Origin: Lama guanicoe | Taxonomy: Eukaryota | Assembly (NCBI GenBank): GCA_013239625.1 | Contig: MU053588.1 | Coordinates: forward strand, 831,988 to 895,987 | Length of the DNA stretch: 64,000 nucleotides | Direction of reading: 5' to 3' | Shown here: positions 40,396 to 55,765 of the stretch, piece by piece | Position numbering within the stretch: position 1 is the first letter of the stretch | Layout: every line of letters starts with the position of its first letter | Notes under the pieces: model-generated | The model's input: only the letters and a program-made list of their open reading frames with translations | Told to the model about the DNA's origin: nothing | The model's database searches: none | Translations under genes and position numbers: made by a program

Positions 40396-42521
40396 CTTGT
40401 GTGTTCACTAGCTGAGCAGCTGCCTGGAGTCCCTGACGAGAGGGTGTGGTCCAGCATTAGCCCCTCCTCCTGTCCCCCTGGTCCCAGACACTGTCGTGGC
40501 CAACACACACACACACACACACAGACATTTCCCTAAGAACCAGGGAACATCAGCCTCACAAACTTCTTTTTCTCGAAACCCAAATGACAGAAATCCAGCA
40601 CTCTGTAAGAATTTGTTAAGTTGGAAAGAGAAAGCTGTACCTCAGAAGTCATACATTGGAGGACTGAAAGCCGGCCCCGGCCCACAGAGTTGTGTTAGTT
40701 TTAGAATTAATGGTCAACTTTTTAAAATCTGGAGATGGTACAGAAAGAAATCTGGATTAGGAGCTTGGTGACTCTGTCCTCTGCAGCAAGACTCAGAACT
40801 GAGGGCCCCTGCCTCCTCCAGTGGGCCGTGCCCCAGGCCACGCCCTCCCCAGCGCTGGCGCATTGACACCCCCCTCCTCGATGGGAGTAGGCCTCCCTCT
40901 GCCAGTCATCTAAATGGTGGTTTGGGGTGGAGAGCAGCCCCTGCTTCCAGACCAGGGCTGGGGAGGTGGAGGTGTCTCAGAAAGATACTGACACATCCGG
41001 ACCTCAGCCCTGGGCCAGGCCTTCCTCTTGGGGCTCTCCTCTCTGGGGAAGGGTCTTAAGACTCCTGGCCCCAGGTCTGTGGCTGCCCTGGTGAACACTT
41101 GCCATTTGACCTGAGGATCAGGGTCAAACTTACTTTCCAAATCTCAAAATTCCACGTGGAACTCCATGTGAAAATCCCAAGGTCTGGCCTCTTGTGGGAA
41201 GTCTAGGTCCAGCTCCGCCTGGATCTGAGAAGCAGGACCCCGTGGCTGGGCCTTTCAAACCCACCAACTCATTTTACCTGTGACTGAGTTTACTGTTTAT
41301 GAGCTCAAACCTCATGCTTCTCTGACCCAGACCCTCCCCTCCTGTCAAAAAAAAAAAAAAGCTTTTTCCAAAAGGGGTATATATCCTTTTTCCAGAGGAG
41401 GTGGACCAGCTATTTCCACATCTCCTAAAAATTCTAGAGTGTTCCAGACATTCTCCCTGTCTCCACCCTCCTCGAGGCCCCATCTTCAACCCTTGCTGCC
41501 CTCCCCCCACCAGCACAGAAACGGCAGAACAAGCTGTTCTCACATCCTCTCCTGGCGCCTGTGACACACACCGACTTCCAACACCCTACAGCCCGCGCAC
41601 GCCAGCCTGTGCTCTTGCCCGAACTGTGCCCTGCTCATCCCTTCCCCATCTTGCCCCAGTTTTCCACGTCCTCTGCCTTGTCCCCTTCCTCCCCTGTGTC
41701 TCTTTCTGCCCCCCCACCCCAACACTGGCTCTCTCCTCACCCAGGCTCTGAATCCCTTCATACCTTTGGCTCTCTCCAGATTTTTCTGTTGTCTCCCTAA
41801 ATTCTTTGTGTCCTCTCCCCTGAAGTCTCAGCTCTGTGTCATTATCCTGGGACTTTGCCTGTCCTGGATCCTAACTAAATCCCTCTCCCCAAATGTGCCC
41901 CCCTCTAATTCTCTCTTCCTCTCTCCTATGTTGTTTGCCCTGGTTCTCTGCCTCCCCTCATGGAATCTCTTCTGCTTCTATCTCCAAATCACTGTCAGTT
42001 TCTTCCTTTTCCGTCTCCCCCTATGTGTCTGCTATTTTTTCTTACTATGATTTCCTCTCCCACTAAATCTCCATCTCTTCTGCCCTCTTCCCCCATAATT
42101 CCTGACTCTCTTCATCTACATCTCTCTCCAGATCTATTTCTTTTCCCTCTTCTGCTTGCTTCTCTTTTTTTGATTCTCTGTAAATGTGGGACTCTCATAT
42201 CTGCCTCTCTCCTGACTGCTCCTGTGTCCTGTTTCTCACTCCTCACCCCACTTCACCCCTATCTGGCTTTCTCCTAATGCCCTGGACCCATCTCTTTCTC
42301 TCCTTTTTACCTTCCCCTCTGCCCTTGGCCCCACATCCTGTATAGGGAGCTCCAGGAGATGTCTGGGCCGAGGATGAAGCTCCTGGCACCCCTGCTCCCT
42401 ACCGTAGCCCCAGGAGGGGAGGGGCCAGCTCACAGTCTTCATCTTTCCATCCCCTCCCTTCCCCCAGTCCCCAGCTTCCCGCCTCCCTTCTCACTGCTTC
42501 CCGCTGCAGCTGCAGCAGTCC

Positions 42522-42535
42522 GTTGCCAGGGCAAC
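42522..42535. promoter_or_regulatory. RFX X-box GTTGCCAGGGCAAC downstream of the DPF1 poly(A) site
   Basis: 13/14 match to the X-box consensus. Confidence 0.6.
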
Positions 42536-42769
42536 CACAGCTGGCTGGGTGGGAGCCCCCTCCACCCCATCCCCCCCCTTCTCCTTTCCAGCGAGGCAGG
42601 GAGGAGCTGGGACAAAGCCAGAGAAAGGCGGGGTGCAGGGGGAGCTGGAGGGAGATGGAGGTAGGGGACAGCTCCAGCTGTTAACCTCAGTTGCTTTTCC
42701 CCCAGTGAGGCCCTGTCTCTCCTTCTTGGTGACACCCTAAACCAGCCTAGAGAATGAGGCAGACGTGGG

Positions 42770-43807
42770 CAGAGGGGTCAGGCCCAGTTTAATACACAGA
42801 ACAAGTTAATTCACAGCAGAGGCAGGCAATAAAGGAGACTCGTTTGCAAGGAGGGGCACGCCTGGATTGGGGGAGACCCCCCCAAACCCACCACCTCCCC
42901 CACTTGCAGTCTCAATTTCCCTTTTTTTTAAAACCCGAACAACAAACACACACAACCACAAGAAACAACCACGCCCCCTCGCTGCCCTGAAAATGGCCAG
43001 CGAGGGTGGCAGGGGGCAGCCCGGCCTGGCCGGTAGGGAATCGGGGCAGGAGGAGGAGGAAAATCTAGTCCTTTGCAGAGTCTGTGCTTCTCATTCCAGC
43101 AGGCGCTGGGCAGGGGCCCGCCTTGCCCCACCGGCGACGGCGACGGCCATGGCAGGCACGGTGGGCAGGGCTCTCAGGGAAGGAGCAGGAACGGAGTTCA
43201 GAACCATGGTTCACATCATGCAGTATCCACGGTGGGCGCCAAGAGGGGTCAAGGGGTGGACACCACACCCACCTGCCCCGGGCACCGGGGGCATGGTGCC
43301 CACCTTGGGTGGGGAGGTGGGACTGGTGGGGAGGGGCCACCAGGCGGGAAGCTGGCAGACTGGTGCCCAGTAGATGCGCTCAGCAGTGCCCCCCACCCCG
43401 CACCCAGCCAGGCCTTATAGGACTCTTTGTATATATTAATTTCTTTTTTTTTTTAGCTTTTTGATTTTTTTCTTTAGAAAAAGGTTGTGTCTGTGTCCCC
43501 AGCTGGCATCCACCACCCCTCGTGCCCGCCCAGAGGCGGGGTATGGCTTTGAGGGGAGCAGAAGCCCCTGGTGCTCATTTGCCAAGGGGTGGGGAAGGAG
43601 GGAGGAAGGGAGAGGGCCCTGCCGGGCCCCTCAACCCACAGGGCGAACATTCCACTTGCACAGAGGGGAGGGGGTGGCCCAGCCCCATCTCGGGCTCCCC
43701 CTCGCCCCTCCCACTGTGGGGCATTAAGGATGAGGAGAGAGTGGAGGAGCTCCAAGAGGCAGGTAGGCAAGCACCACCCCAGAGGTCCAGGTGAGCCAGA
43801 GCCAGGC
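42770..43807 (-). other. DPF1: DPF1 3'UTR (about 1 kb)
   Basis: Between TAG (43808-43810) and the ATTAAA signal; end approximate. Confidence 0.7.
42788..42793 (-). terminator. DPF1 polyadenylation signal ATTAAA
   Basis: tttaat on + strand, about 1 kb beyond the DPF1 stop, preceded on the - strand by U/GU-rich sequence. Confidence 0.7.
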
Positions 43808-44693: not shown

Positions 44694-44806
44694 GTCGTTC
44701 TCCGAGGTGCCACACAGGCTGCAGGACTTGCACTCGATGCACTGCCAGCGGTAGGTCCGCACGGCCGCCGTCATGTTCACCGTGAACTGTAAACACGAGG
44801 GGTGTC
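44694..44806 (-). CDS. DPF1: DPF1 exon 10 ([38 protein letters not shown])
   Basis: PHD1/PHD2 of the double PHD finger; cccccag acceptor and gtgagt donor. Confidence 0.97.
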
Positions 44807-44924
44807 CTGGGGGCCGAGGGGCAGGGATGCGGTTAGGGGTCTTCGTGCCCCTGGTGGCCACTGACTCCTGGGGAAGAAACTGCACAGCCCCCCATCCCTG
44901 GCTCACAAGGCCTGTGAGCTGCTG

Positions 44925-45720
44925 TGGCCCATGGCCTGACCCTGCCCAGCCCACAGTGCCCAGCACCCGTCCGGCAGGCAGCGCCGCCATGGCCACCAGT
45001 CTCCTGCCCAGCCACCATGGCAACCGCACTCTGCTCCCCAGAACACCATGGCAACCGCATTCCATTACCCACAGTGCTGTGGCAACCACTTTCTACCACC
45101 CACAACACCGGGCAGCCACATTCTGTTAACCGCTGTGCTGAGGCAGCCACATTCCATTACCCACAGCAGAATGGCCAACCGGTTCTGTTAACCGCAGTAA
45201 CGTGGCAACCACAGTCTCCTAGCCACGACGCCATGGCTGCCACTTTCCACCGAGGGGTCCCCGCACCCCCCGGCAACCCAAGCCTATTGCACACGCTGCC
45301 CCAGCAACCACAGTTACCAACAGGTTTGCACAATGTGCCAACCCTACTGGTCAGCCCACCACCCAGTGCAGACGCCCAGCCATTACCCCAGGCCACTAGG
45401 GCTCCCTTCCGCTACACCCAATCTCCATGACAATGGTGTTTCACTACACATAATACCGTGACAACCACAATTCATTAGCCATCATGCTGAGATGACCACA
45501 GTCTACTGCCCACAAGTCCACGTTGGGAAACCACATTCTATTAACCACAACCCCATGGCCAGCACCCTGTTATCCACAGCACCCAGGCAGCGGCAATCTA
45601 TTACTATCACAACCCACTACGCACAATGTCTTAGCAACCATCTCTCACTGGTCCCCACTATGTGATAAGCACATACCAGTACCCGAAATGCCATGCCAAC
45701 CACATCCCATTATTCCCAGA
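44925..45720. repeat. Degenerate ~31-bp minisatellite with a CCATGGCAACC core in DPF1 intron 9
   Basis: Core starts at 45019, 45050, 45081, 45111, 45142, 45173, 45204, 45235, then 45272, 45303, 45428, 45459, 45526, 45557 and others. Confidence 0.85.
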
Positions 45721-45898
45721 GCCTCCCTGACCCCACTCAGTTTCCCACAATACTCAGCGGTTGAGTCTGGTTATCCTCAGTCCCCTGGGATGCTCTGCAT
45801 CCCTCTCAGTCCTCACTCCTCTGCTTCCTATCCTCCACATCTGGGTTCCAGGAATCCTCTCCACCCTGGCCCCCAGAAACTTCAGGTGGAGGCATCAC

Positions 45899-46018
45899 CT
45901 GATCGCCCACAGTCAGCACAGGAGATGAGGTCCTCGGGACACCCCGTCTTCTTGGAGCCACCCAGACAGAAGTCACAGTAGCCATTGGGGATGACAGTAC
46001 CGTCAGGAGCCTTCTTGG
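45899..46018 (-). CDS. DPF1: DPF1 exon 9 ([40 protein letters not shown])
   Basis: PHD1 start YCDFC; ttgcag acceptor and gtgatg donor; 120 nt. Confidence 0.96.
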
Positions 46019-46159: not shown

Positions 46160-46904
46160 CTGGGAGTGGGGGACAGAGAGAGGGGCTCTCACCATAGGCA
46201 AGGCTCTCACCATAGGCAAGGTTCCACCCTGCCCCCAGTCTCAGCCCCAGGGGTGGACCCCTTGTCCAGGTGTGGACGGGGTGGGGAGAGGGAGTAGCTA
46301 CCCCAAAATGTGGGCAGTAGCAAAAGAGAGTTGGAGGAGCCCAAATAATTCTCATCAGGAACCCACCAACTCTTTGAGCACAACTGATATGTCCTCTTTA
46401 TTAGGTGAAAACTTGGCAGATACAGCTTTAGGAAGAGCCCCCAGCTTCCCCACTCATACACACTTCTACCACACTGCCACCCCCAATGAAGCCCTGTCTA
46501 AATAAAAATTAGGTAGATACCACTGGCCAAGATCGGGTATGGAGACAGACACTCAGAAGGAAAATTCTGAACACAGAGGTGCCTGGGTGTGTAGTGGGAA
46601 TGGGATAAAGAGACTGCCCTCTTCTGCCAAGGGGTGGGTGGGGAGATGGTTTCTCCACTGGCAGAGGCTCCCCACAGCCTCCCCCAATCCCTCAGCTGTC
46701 TGGGTTGGCATGGGATTGGCATGGGTAGAAGCCAAGGGTTCCCAGGCCACGGACCCTGCCCCTCAGCCAAAGCTTAGAGAAGGGAGAAAGGGAGGCAGGG
46801 AGAGAGGGGAGTCATCTATCACCCCCCTCCCCAAGCTCTAATTGAAACAATAAATCAGACCCAGAAATATTACGCCCGGCCGGGAGCGAGGGAGAGAGAT
46901 GGTT

Positions 46905-46920
46905 GGTTGCCATGGCAACC
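46905..46920. promoter_or_regulatory. Perfect RFX X-box palindrome GGTTGCCATGGCAACC in DPF1 intron 7
   Basis: Exact match to the GTTGCCATGGCAAC RFX consensus. Confidence 0.75.
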
Positions 46921-48352: not shown

Positions 48353-48579
48353 CTGGGGACAAGGCCATGGTGGGGGAAGGGGTCAGGCAGAGAAGTCATC
48401 CCTGGAGGACTCTTCAAACTGCCCAGATTGGGGAACCATGCTCTGTGCTGGAGGGAAGAGGACTTCCCAACCTCAACCAGCAACAAACTCAAAGATTCAA
48501 CCACACATCCTGGAAAAGATGCCTAGACCTTGGGGAAGGCAGAGCCAGACCCTCAGAGCCACTTGAACACACTCAGGGG

Positions 48580-49640
48580 GAGACAAGGCCAGACCTTCAT
48601 ATATACCTAGATACATGTAGGAGACCCGCGCCCCGCCCCCTCCAGATCCTTACATCTGGAGAGAACAGACACTCAAAACAGGATACACACAGACATAGAC
48701 AGGGAAGATACAGGCAGATCATCTGAGACAGCTAGACAAAGAGACAGACCCAGACACATGAAGGAGACACAGCCAGACCCTTGGGTACACCCAGAGACAC
48801 TCAGAAAGAGACTGTTAGACCATCAGAAACACCCAGATCCACTTGGGAAAGACACAGCCAGACCCCACCATACACCTGAACACACTTAGAGAAGATACAG
48901 ACACACCTAGAGAGAACCACTCAGATGGGTACACAGATACACAGGGGATATAGACAGTCCCTCTGAAGCAGACACACCCCAGCAGACACAGCCAGGTGGA
49001 CCCACACAGATTCTTGGATATACCCAGACAAGGGAAGGGAAACAGCCAGTGACTCTGATAGTACTGGACACACTCAAGAAGTGATAAGGCCAGACTCTCG
49101 GTTATAGCAGCACACATGGGTCGAAACACACCTCATATACCAGACACTCGAGGAAGAGATTCTCCCCGACATTCTGAAGCATCTGGCCCTCAAAGAAAGA
49201 GACAGCCGGACACCCTGATCCACCCACACTCAGGAACAGCTGCACACTCTGATAGACCAGACACACCCAAGAGGAAGTAAACCTTCTAATATACTTAGAA
49301 ACACCTGACAAGAGACACAGACACTGAAATCCACTCTATGACAAACGGAAGGAGTTACAACCGGACACTCTGACACACCCAGAGACACTCAGGCACCCAC
49401 AGGAAGAAATATAGGCAGACACTCTGATACATCCCAGCTCAAAGGGAAGGGATACAAAGACTGGGTTCACCTAGACACATGACAGGTACCACTCTCCTGG
49501 AATTCGCCTGGGCCCAAGGAGGAGAAGATACAGTCCAAAGTTCGGTCACTCAAGGAAACCTTGGAGAATCTTTGGACTACACCCAGACACACGGGGGCAG
49601 ACACACAGCCAGCCACTCAGACACTGGCTAGGAGGGACAT
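48580..49640. repeat. Low-complexity CAGACAC/AGACAC-rich region in DPF1 intron 3
   Basis: Motif recurs more than 20 times on the + strand. Confidence 0.7.
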
Positions 49641-50072: not shown

Positions 50073-50264
50073 CTGCGAGGGGCGGGTGAGCGGGCGGGCA
50101 GCTGTCAGCAAGGGCAGGCGCACCCGGTCGCCCAGCACCCCTCCCCCAGCCCGCCCGTCGAGAGTGGGTGGGCCGACTCCTCCAACCTCGCCTCTCCCCT
50201 CCAGTCGCCCCTGGACCCAGGAACCCCCAACCTGGGGCTTAAGCAGGCCTCGAGCCAACAACGA

Positions 50265-51030
50265 GTGGATACACACAATATAGAAACAGACAAAAATACA
50301 CCGAGACCCATCCGTACAGGCACATATCCAAATCCACAACTCAAACGAATGGCACATAGTCGCACTGGATTCACACACAAAGAGAGACATATCCCAAGAC
50401 TCACAAAGGAGAAATTGACACATCTCACATATGTGCACACACAAATATCTACTGAAAAACACAAATATCTCAAGTCCCATAATGTAGAAACAGACAGATC
50501 ACACACATTTCCATGCGTAAATATACAATCACCCAACAAAGACACACAACATGCAAACAGATCACACACTGCACACACTTACGCGTCCAAAGATACACAC
50601 AGATACACAAATGTTAAAAGAGAAAAAATGTTAAAATAAACTACCCACATATGCACTTACACATATATCCAAAGGCACAACACAAATCTCACACACACAC
50701 ACACACACACACATACACACTATCCAGATACAGTATACAAAGAAATCATAGATTCACACAGGAGACACAAAGATACACAATATAGAAGCCAACATCTAAA
50801 ATGCCACATATTCAGACACACAAAGATACACACATACACAACATAGAAACAGGCAAATCCACTCATATTCACACAAAAATTTGCACATAAATACATGCAT
50901 ACCTACATATCCAATGACACAGAACACAAATGATGTACAGTTTCAAAGGACATGCACACACACTCAAAGACGCAAATATCCAAAGGTACCTAGTGTGGAA
51001 TAAAAGAAATTAAACACATATCCACACATA
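50265..51030. repeat. AC-rich low-complexity tract with (CA)n at about 50690-50720 in DPF1 intron 1
   Basis: Repeated acacaaagatacaca-like units; G-poor on the + strand. Confidence 0.8.
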
Positions 51031-51299
51031 TCCAAAAAAAAAAAAGCAGAAAACCCCAAACCAGGACGCAGACAAGTGACACAGACTCCACATCCCAAGA
51101 CAAAGGTAATACAGGCTTCACTCAAGTTTACCGAGGCCCCTGCGCCCCTAGGCCATTTCACCTTCTCCCCAACCCCGGGGGTCGCAGGGCGGGACATGAC
51201 CCCCTTTTCCGAAGAGGACCCGAAGAGGACTCCGAGTTCCCCATACTCTCCACTCCTCCAGGAGCAGCGCGTTGAACACAGTTCTTGCCAGAGACCCAT

Positions 51300-51680
51300 A
51301 GTCACACACACTCGCAACCCCGTGCAGCCCGGCCCACGGTGACAGCCCCCCAGACACCCCATCGGCCCCACCCCCAGCCGCCACACACACACGCCCGCGA
51401 GGACCCGCCTGCGCGCCCTCCCCCGCCTCCCGCCGGCCCGCAGCACCTCAGGGGGCCGGGGATGACCGTGGCCATCTTGCTCCCCGGGTCCTGCCCCCAG
51501 CAGGTCCCCGCCGGGCTGGTCCTCCCAGCGCTCGGGCGGGCGCTGAGGCCGCCCATCCATTCATTCCCGGGGGGCGGGAGCGCCGGGGCCACCGCCAATC
51601 AGGACGGCGGGGCGGGCCCGCGCGGGCCATGCTGGGAGTGGTAGTTCCAGGCCTGGGGCTGGCCGGACCCCGCGGGGAAA
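51300..51680 (-). promoter_or_regulatory. DPF1 proximal CpG-island promoter (GC boxes, CCAAT 51595, ZNF143/SBS-type motif 51628-51646)
   Basis: CpG-dense; - strand AACTACCACTCCCAGCATG fits ACTAY-RNNN-CCCR; GGGGCGGG boxes. Confidence 0.8.
51447..51475 (-). CDS. DPF1: DPF1 proximal first coding exon (MATVIPGPLS); in-frame upstream ATG at 51556 adds 27 aa (MGGLSARP...)
   Basis: aagATGG Kozak context, ag|gtgctg phase-2 donor; with exons 2-12 gives 1164 nt = 387 aa. Confidence 0.93.
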
Positions 51681-52109
51681 GGGGTCAGAGGTAGGGCCTG
51701 GGGCACGCACAGCCACTCACGCACGCTCACTCATGCACACCTCTGAGTCTCACACTTGGGCCTACACTCACACATGTACACCTGGACTCGCACACACCCA
51801 CCCACGGCAGCTTACACACACATTCACACGTATCCTCACAGCTCCCACGCAGACGCACGCACACTCCCTGTCCCACACCTTCGCACAGACTCACATACAT
51901 TTACACTCACTTCAGTGCTAAGAGACTTAGAGACACCTTACAGGTGCCCACACAAAAGTCCCACCAACACGTGACTCACTGACACCGCCCCCTCCCCCCA
52001 GTCCCTTCTAGCTCCAGAGAACCTTCTCGGGTCCCCTTTGGGGCTGTCGCTCTCACAGTGAGCCAGCCCTGCTCCACCCCTTCCCAGGCCTGACAGCATC
52101 CGTGCCAGT

Positions 52110-55299: not shown

Positions 55300-55765
55300 G
55301 GCGAGCCCCCCAGGGGCGGGGGCGCTCACTGGGGGCCCCCATTCAACTACCATCGGCGTGCTGCGTCCCCCTCCCCAGCGAGGGCGGGGGAAGGGCTCGG
55401 GAAGGGGGCGGGATGGAGGGACGTGGACGGCGGGGACACTCACGACTTGAGCGGGTTCTGAATGGCGGTGGCCATGACCCGCTCGACTGGGCCGCCTCCG
55501 GCCCGGGGCGCCGCTGCCGCCGCGCGCGGGCCCAGCCCGGCCTGCGCCGCCCGCTCTGCCGCCCAGCGCGCTACGATTTCATTCATTCTTGGGGCTGCGG
55601 CGCGAGCGGAGCGGGGCGGGCCGGGGGCGGGGCTCGGCCAATCCCCGCACCTCCCGGCGCACGACGGGACGTGGAGTCTAGGGGCGCGCGGCGGCGCCCG
55701 AGGGTGCCCCTGTCCGGACTACACGTCCCAGGGGGCGTCGGGAGGATCGCGCGCCCATTGGCTAC
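55300..55765 (-). promoter_or_regulatory. DPF1 distal CpG-island promoter (GC boxes, CCAAT 55638, ZNF143/SBS-type motif 55718-55736)
   Basis: CpG-dense; ACTACACGTCCCAGGGGGC; second CCAAT box as ATTGG near 55757. Confidence 0.78.
55444..55475 (-). CDS. DPF1: DPF1 distal alternative first coding exon (MATAIQNPLKS)
   Basis: gtcATGG Kozak context, TC|gtgagt phase-2 donor, inside a CpG island; resembles the DPF3 start MATVIHNPLKA. Confidence 0.88.

Follow-up and report, generated by a model that had tools for sequence, protein, structure and literature searches.

An old 31-bp repeat in DPF1 intron 9

The window, the whole 64-kb stretch of DNA analysed, carries on its minus strand DPF1, a neuronal chromatin gene encoding a neuron-specific BAF subunit. 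As read by eye on that strand, the first coding exon exists in two alternative forms, MATAIQNPLK.. (55444-55475) and MATVIPGPL.. (51447-51476). At the other end, DPF1 and a convergent neighbour, which we take from a mouse peak table to be SIPA1L3, seem to end some 2.4 kb apart (42770-42793 and 40376), with an X-box at 42522 and a pyrimidine-rich tract (41550-42350) lying between them. The subject of this analysis is the intron numbered 9 by our own exon count. The exons bordering it, AKKAPDG..CGRS at 45899-46018 and GHPSCLQ..END at 44694-44806, both encode the first PHD finger, and most of its length is occupied by a degenerate tandem array (Table 1).

Table 1. Coordinates of the features of the DPF1 locus treated in the text
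Feature	Position in window	Strand	Basis or remark
DPF1 intron 9	44807-45898	-	Exon peptides on either side match named DPF1 proteins
Old 31-bp minisatellite, about 25 units	44987-45752		TRF, lag self-identity, wrap-around alignment
Units 2-4, conserved core	45011-45107		Three RFX half-sites 31 bp apart (45019, 45050, 45081)
TEAD-like CATTCC motif, unit 3	45056-45065	+	Candidate partner site; CATTCC kept in 12/12 records
Unit 6, second conserved patch	45138-45168		Translated identity 0.88; half-site not intact
Unit-8 RFX half-site	45204-45209	+	Kept in 7/7 records while spacers decay
Unit-9 site	45227-45240		Decayed here (4 mismatches to X-box); near-full X-box in other lineages
Distal two thirds of array	45262-45752		No sign of constraint; poorly sampled
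Intron-7 element	46835-46919		Homeodomain/SOX-type motifs and perfect palindromic X-box (46906-46919)
Perfect-consensus X-box	42522-42535		Just downstream of the DPF1 3' end

Three measures agree on the repeat. TRF reports period 31 at 45049-45166 and period 62 at 45018-45237 (score 200). Self-identity at lag 31 is 0.418 (z = 9, 500 shuffles), the top periodic signal among lags 20-69 within the window. Wrap-around alignment places 24-25 units across the array with a score of 394, against 65 +/- 14 and a maximum of 93 in 30 shuffles, so that head-to-tail copies exceed chance, as is expected of a minisatellite. A preliminary description had proposed a diverged 31-bp array of some 20-25 units at this place, and these results bear it out; its approximate unit consensus likewise agrees with the computed one. 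The core positions that it listed are correct, the set from 45428 differing by one base from our register, and the array starts near 44987 instead of at 44925.

The array is evidently ancient. Its units have a mean identity of 62% to a leave-one-out consensus, comparable with the 64-75% identity to a reference copy found for old repeats elsewhere in the window, which we presume to be of MIR type. Its first third shows a 62-bp dimer pattern, the array has a weak 14/17-bp internal repeat, three column pairs of the unit vary like decayed CpG, and indels are many. A profile search of the 64-kb window found no further copy of the array, and Rfam gave three matches in the window, all tRNA-like SINE.

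RFX proteins bind GTTRCY as monomers and the X-box as dimers (10.1101/2022.11.11.515474), and possess a separate dimerization domain (PMC5838959). In this genome the exact core RGCAAC occurs in only 7 units and exact CCATGGCAAC in only 2. The monomer half-site RGYAAC has 8 matches within the array, which contains no perfect X-box; its best candidates are four 14-bp sites with 1-2 mismatches, among 9 loci in the window that match the 14-bp consensus with at most 2 mismatches. Within this genome, core columns are retained better than other non-CpG columns by 0.08-0.10 under flat scoring. CpG decay was considered as the full reason for the better-kept core and accounts for it only in part, the core still standing above non-CpG columns. 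Against neutral simulations the core excess has P of 0-0.06 if the core is named beforehand and of 0.10-0.50 if the best 6-column window is allowed; a profile-scored alignment gives P = 0.008 for the core named beforehand. The seven exact half-sites compare with 3.6-4.6 expected under neutral decay (P 0.12-0.19), and together with the four near X-boxes they fall within neutral decay (P 0.12-0.20). The earlier proposal that the core is better kept than the rest of the unit is thus marginal in the window alone, and non-significant after a look-elsewhere correction; what stands of it is the keeping of particular half-sites across lineages, described below. Judged from the within-genome test alone, neutral decay is the likelier account of the array.

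A conserved island in units 2-4 and 6 and retained half-sites in units 8 and 9

Animal contigs carry chance ORFs left behind by gene callers, and protein collections were therefore searched with translations of intron 9, the matches being chance ORFs that read through the intron. For the minus-strand ORF running from the array into exon 10 there were 165 matches, of which the best 120 were listed; a further 3 came from the plus-strand ORF and 12 from phmmer with P0121, and cluster members were added to the set. Translated records were compared by frameshift-aware alignment, with nucleotide identity inferred by calibration. The records are mutually related and represent, by our estimate, perhaps 8-10 independent lineages, and the plus-strand records, having been found by likeness to the array region, are selected for resemblance. 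P0123 (4 flank codons), five aligned records short of the core and near-duplicates were left out of the core-versus-flank count.

The intron translations match records from other animals, so that the array is not restricted to one lineage. Units 2-4 have 84-97% amino-acid identity to the window, against 38-83% and many gaps in the non-array flank, and exceed the flank in all 19 related records that cover both. By calibration these values correspond to nucleotide identities of about 92-98% versus 65-92%, and to an inferred flank/core rate ratio with a median of 5.6 (range 1.9-30). When translated identity is averaged over 31-bp bins in 18 records, the flank stands at 0.49-0.67, units 2, 3 and 4 at 0.86, 0.93 and 0.96, unit 5 at 0.75, unit 6 at 0.88, units 7-9 at 0.57-0.66 and exon 10 at 0.96-0.99; on this translated measure, the conservation of units 2-4 approaches that of exon 10. 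Seven minus-strand records repeat the pattern of units 2-4 above flank and, since they were retrieved via exon 10, likeness to the array was not required for finding them. Among the groups that could be aligned, the most diverged (P0123, P0144 and P0010) has a flank identity of about 67%, a value as expected for rodents, which these records may be. Indels in units 2-4 amount to one whole-unit deletion and one frameshift across records. Among the aligned records, whole-unit deletions occur in P0157 and probably P0154, and at unit 5 the window has lost one base pair, a deletion absent from most records. A coding function for the conserved stretch was ruled out, since the match is of similar quality whichever frame or strand is read, and frameshifts set records apart.

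Among the matches listed, 48 records hold the exon-10 peptide but lack the normal spliced junction, and 14 of these extend at least 250 nt upstream. Eight of the 14 hold 10-16 core-derived 4-mers and six hold none, the latter being three fish or bird proteins and three others, one of which reads through a 90-bp intron. The exon-10 pattern was found at 6 loci in metagenomes, 5 of them chance and the sixth a contig with a fish-like dpf1 orthologue (L004), and at none in prokaryote genomes; the 2.3-kb intron 9 of L004 is without such an array, and some 120 bp upstream of its exon 9 there is a GTTGCC half-site (L004:1435-1450). The unit-3 pattern gave 18 + 1 loci in prokaryote and viral contigs, none matching past about 30 bases. 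Separately, the last 39 nt of intron 9 (window 44807-44845) are in frame with exon 10 and strongly conserved, and one annotated bat isoform (P0011, Myotis) begins within them.

That the entire array is neutral junk, like other fossil intronic minisatellites, would fit the CpG-type decay at three column pairs, the many indels, the presence of a second old array in DPF1 intron 3 and a within-genome core excess that does not survive correction. We nevertheless regard it as extremely improbable, because units 2-4 change several-fold more slowly than the adjoining flank in 19/19 records, at rates approaching those of exon 10.

Half-site retention was read through amino acids, ambiguous codons making each count of compatible records an upper bound, and its control was the same compatibility test on every 6-mer, with the gaps in P0154 and P0157 set aside. 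Among 12 plus-strand records the half-site is compatible in 10/11 at unit 2, where the site at 45019 belongs to a 14-bp X-box with 2 mismatches at 45011, in 11/11 at unit 3 and in 10/12 at unit 4. The same records give 2/7, 3/8 and 0/9 at units 5, 6 and 7, then 7/7 at unit 8 and 5/6 at unit 9. P0123 and P0144, which belong to the most diverged lineage that could be aligned, have lost the unit-2 site, and P0122 and P0152 that of unit 4; one unit-2 change, in P0007 and P0158, stays inside RGYAAC. Over all 6-mers, retention is 864/1020 in units 2-4 versus 294/1301 in flank. Among the 86 6-mer starts in units 7-9, only 45203-45206, at the unit-8 half-site, are retained at 0.85 or above (0/135 in flank), with retention at neighbouring starts down to 21/121. 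At unit 9, the minimum numbers of X-box mismatches in six other records are 0, 1, 1, 1, 2 and 3 as lower bounds, and thus 0-1 in four of the six. These counts support the view that RFX half-sites have been selectively kept across lineages in units 2, 3, 4, 8 and 9. Five retained half-sites within 220 bp exceed the three or more per few hundred bases that characterize a homotypic cluster, and they are conserved above their surroundings, with the spacers of units 2-4 conserved as well.

The spacers bear on what holds the island in place. Variable sites in units 2-4 number 5/24 in the cores and 14/69 in the spacers; with spacers conserved like half-sites, RFX alone does not account for the island. 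Exact CRCATTCCAT occurs twice in the window (units 3 and 6; 0.12 expected), and CATTCC of the second copy, at 45148, is kept in 9/10 records. We take these CATTCC motifs to be TEAD-like and other spacer motifs to be RUNX-like. An enhancer held mainly by such factors or by other spacer sites, with the RFX likeness incidental or minor, would suit the conservation of units 2-4 across entire units, that of unit 6 without an intact half-site, and the location of both CRCATTCCAT copies in the best-kept units. We consider this unlikely, in that the unit-8 footprint coincides exactly with the half-site, unit 9 is a near-full X-box in 4/6 records, and a three-factor mouse RFX peak projects by spacing onto the island.

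The same records speak to the reach of the constraint. In the distal array translated identity is 0.18-0.60 in the few bins covered, which extend up to about 45450, and a protein search with the distal ORF gave no intron match, its sole match lying in antisense exon 9. The preliminary description had seen the whole array as RFX sites or a sink, a view that gains no support from constraint seen only in the first 250 bp. A phased, low-affinity RFX sink or landing array of all 25 units is, in our judgement, very improbable. In its favour are exact half-sites outside the retained units (45272, 45303 and 45633), a 1-mismatch X-box at 45295, and the poor sampling of the distal part, which leaves room for constraint there; yet the number of exact half-sites is within the range of neutral decay, those of units 5-7 are mostly gone, and intact ones are spread across phases 0 to 0.62 of a turn. 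Selection for a single helical face, also suggested earlier, gains no support of its own: the small number of indels in units 2-4 would follow equally from general sequence constraint, and the 31-bp step comes from the repeat unit itself and drifts by about 17 degrees per unit at 10.5 bp/turn, adjacent sites being 2.95 turns apart.

Nor did the array offer the UGUGG/GGUAAU splice decoys once envisaged: a splice-donor scan of it gave no strong donor-type match, GTRAG and GTRART being absent and GGTAAT present in three weak copies. The island itself might still act in the pre-mRNA, as a splicing element, as an RNA helix near the exon-10 acceptor or as an 8-nt frameshifting microexon (45069-45076). 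It lies 205-300 nt from that acceptor, shuffled sequences fold less well than the 3' 464 nt of the intron (z = -3.1), and AG and GT flank 45069-45076 on the sense (minus) strand without inferred change. We rate such a role as quite unlikely, however: the conserved 176 nt by themselves fold at z = -1.5, the AG of the microexon is not preceded by a polypyrimidine tract, and retention follows DNA-binding motifs. Furthermore, 12/14 proteins spanning the exon 9-10 junction are without insertion, a count that a frameshifted form would escape, and the remaining two look like intron read-through or gene-model errors.

Mouse RFX peaks and the flanking X-boxes

A mouse ChIP-seq data set assigns to Dpf1 the peaks RFX1_39 (+11324), RFX2_53 (+11378) and RFX3_589 (+11350), together with others at about -210 (promoter, RFX1 and RFX3), +9395 (RFX3_5751) and +13816/+13830 (RFX1/RFX3) (PMC7498320 Table S8). 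The RFX1 peak is numbered 39 of 7440 (PMC7498320); these numbers do not follow genomic order and are likely ranks. The outer mouse peaks (+9395 and +13816/+13830) are 4428 bp apart, and the two perfect X-boxes of the window 4384 bp apart. By this spacing the middle peak projects to 44957-45001, at a distance of 10-55 bp from unit 2 and of 130-170 bp from the midpoint of the five retained sites, and the mouse RFX1/2/3 peak probably falls on the exon-10 end of the array. The peak near +11,350, placed between two X-box anchors, thus probably marks the same element; it is a bare table row, and the parts of that study consulted mention no repeat, conservation or function (PMC7498320). Under the projected placement the perfect intron-7 palindrome would be the weakest mouse peak (RFX3_5751 only), which is odd.

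The converse assignment, of the strong mouse peak to the intron-7 palindrome, is less likely. The distance between the X-boxes would then have had to shrink from 4384 bp to about 2470 bp; the exons, 3' exon and short introns between them alone make up about 1950 bp in the window, and P0123 and P0144, of the most diverged group, still keep more than 500 bp of intron 9.

The full X-boxes at 46905 and 42522 had both been described as intragenic. Both are perfect and the intron-7 one is indeed within the gene; the other lies about 250 bp past the sole minus-strand poly(A)-type hexamer in 42600-43300 (at 42788), and is therefore downstream of DPF1. It likely corresponds to the mouse +13,820 RFX1/RFX3 peak. 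A human candidate CRE at DPF1 contains the same motifs as the intron-7 element, 67 bp apart as against 69 in the window (PMC11140214 Data S8A), by which measure human has kept the element; for interneuron development, the human intron-7 X-box is listed as a candidate active CRE (PMC11140214). DPF1 does not appear in the supplementary files consulted for PMC5838959 (5 files), PMC4498915 (4) and PMC10884155 (1).

RFX binding to the island would also be compatible with a silencer of DPF1 in non-neuronal cells, or with an element that controls a nearby gene such as SIPA1L3. The mouse peak was obtained in ependymal cells and not in neurons, GREAT assigns it to Sipa1l3 too, and Dpf1 is listed without fold change in the Rfx2/Rfx3 knockout ependymal-cell table (PMC7498320). 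The last point suggests that Dpf1 is unchanged in the knockouts, if missing values are to be read in that way. We hold this alternative to be improbable nonetheless, given that the same part of DPF1 lies between two further X-boxes, that the promoter has RFX1 and RFX3 peaks, and that the human intron-7 X-box is a candidate CRE active in developing interneurons.

Origin of the element and relation to known repeats

Taken together, the reading that we favour, and regard as probable rather than assured, is that the exon-10-proximal 250 bp of an old 31-bp repeat, conserved across animals, form an intronic enhancer likely bound by RFX1/2/3 at 3-5 half-sites and likely serving DPF1, the rest of the array likely decaying neutrally. 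A CpG-containing unit with a chance RFX half-site would have been amplified before the lineages seen here split, and selection would have retained the copies closest to exon 10. RFX could then load onto several half-sites and near-full X-boxes inside one to two nucleosome lengths, where summed occupancy can exceed that of one perfect palindrome, with partner factors on the conserved spacers (TEAD-like, RUNX-like) completing the element. On the DPF1 promoter it may act jointly with two other elements, the one in intron 7 and the downstream X-box. The simplest model would be a homotypic cluster of three adjacent half-sites and, 124 bp off, two more, the spacers contributing partner sites; such a cluster would reach a high summed occupancy. 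One RFX dimer might conceivably bridge two half-sites 31 bp apart.

A bolder version can be entertained, which we think doubtful: a fossil minisatellite would be among the strongest RFX landing sites in mouse by virtue of dimers bridging direct-repeat half-sites three turns apart, stronger than a single palindrome, would tie DPF1 to RFX dosage, and would have counterparts in other intronic arrays that hide such ends.

Homotypic transcription-factor site clusters and regulatory minisatellites or VNTRs are known classes. The element resembles them in that tandem duplication has multiplied the sites for one factor, several of which fall within a few hundred bases. It differs from regulatory VNTRs in that its units are about 40% diverged from the consensus and only one end is constrained; the former means that it is not a young, length-variable VNTR, and the latter that the history of its co-option is still readable. 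With fossil intronic minisatellites it shares an old, strand-skewed array that fills an intron and occurs, within the window, at a single locus, and differs from them in being strongly constrained in part, with RFX half-sites kept. The likeness to RFX X-box elements (GTNRCC N0-3 RGYAAC, monomer GTTRCY; 10.1101/2022.11.11.515474, PMC5838959) consists in a monomer site in each retained unit, units 2 and 9 approaching a full X-box. Those elements are an inverted pair near the TSS, whereas the intron-9 array offers direct-repeat half-sites 31 bp apart and about 10 kb inside the gene; functional X-boxes far from the TSS are described as the exception (PMC5838959).

No title or abstract on this array appeared in the literature searched, subscription journals and genome-browser tracks lying outside that search, and the element is very likely already visible in such tracks as a region that is conserved and bound. 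Within the literature searched, its novelty lies in its being built of half-sites and in its origin as the co-opted end of a fossil tandem repeat. It would offer a readable case of a putative enhancer born from a tandem repeat: with constrained and decaying copies of one ancestral unit side by side, the sequence reveals which features selection kept. It also offers a test of whether spaced RFX half-sites outdo a perfect X-box, and promoter motif scans centred on the palindrome would miss such elements. In this case a weak test within the genome stood against a strong one across species, so that arrays of this kind can be wrongly discarded on tests in a single genome. RFX3 and RFX4 are both risk genes for autism and intellectual disability (PMC11140214), and a link between RFX and a neuron-specific BAF subunit would be of interest in view of that role.

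Other repeats accompany the array in DPF1. The second old array, in intron 3 (48530-49400), has a unit of about 42-44 bp with an 85-bp dimer, is unrelated to the intron-9 unit and is without an RFX half-site. Degenerate CA-rich tracts in the first introns (50260-51100 and 51700-51950) have the same strand skew as both arrays, and intron 7 carries a perfect, recent 18-bp tandem duplication (46184-46221).
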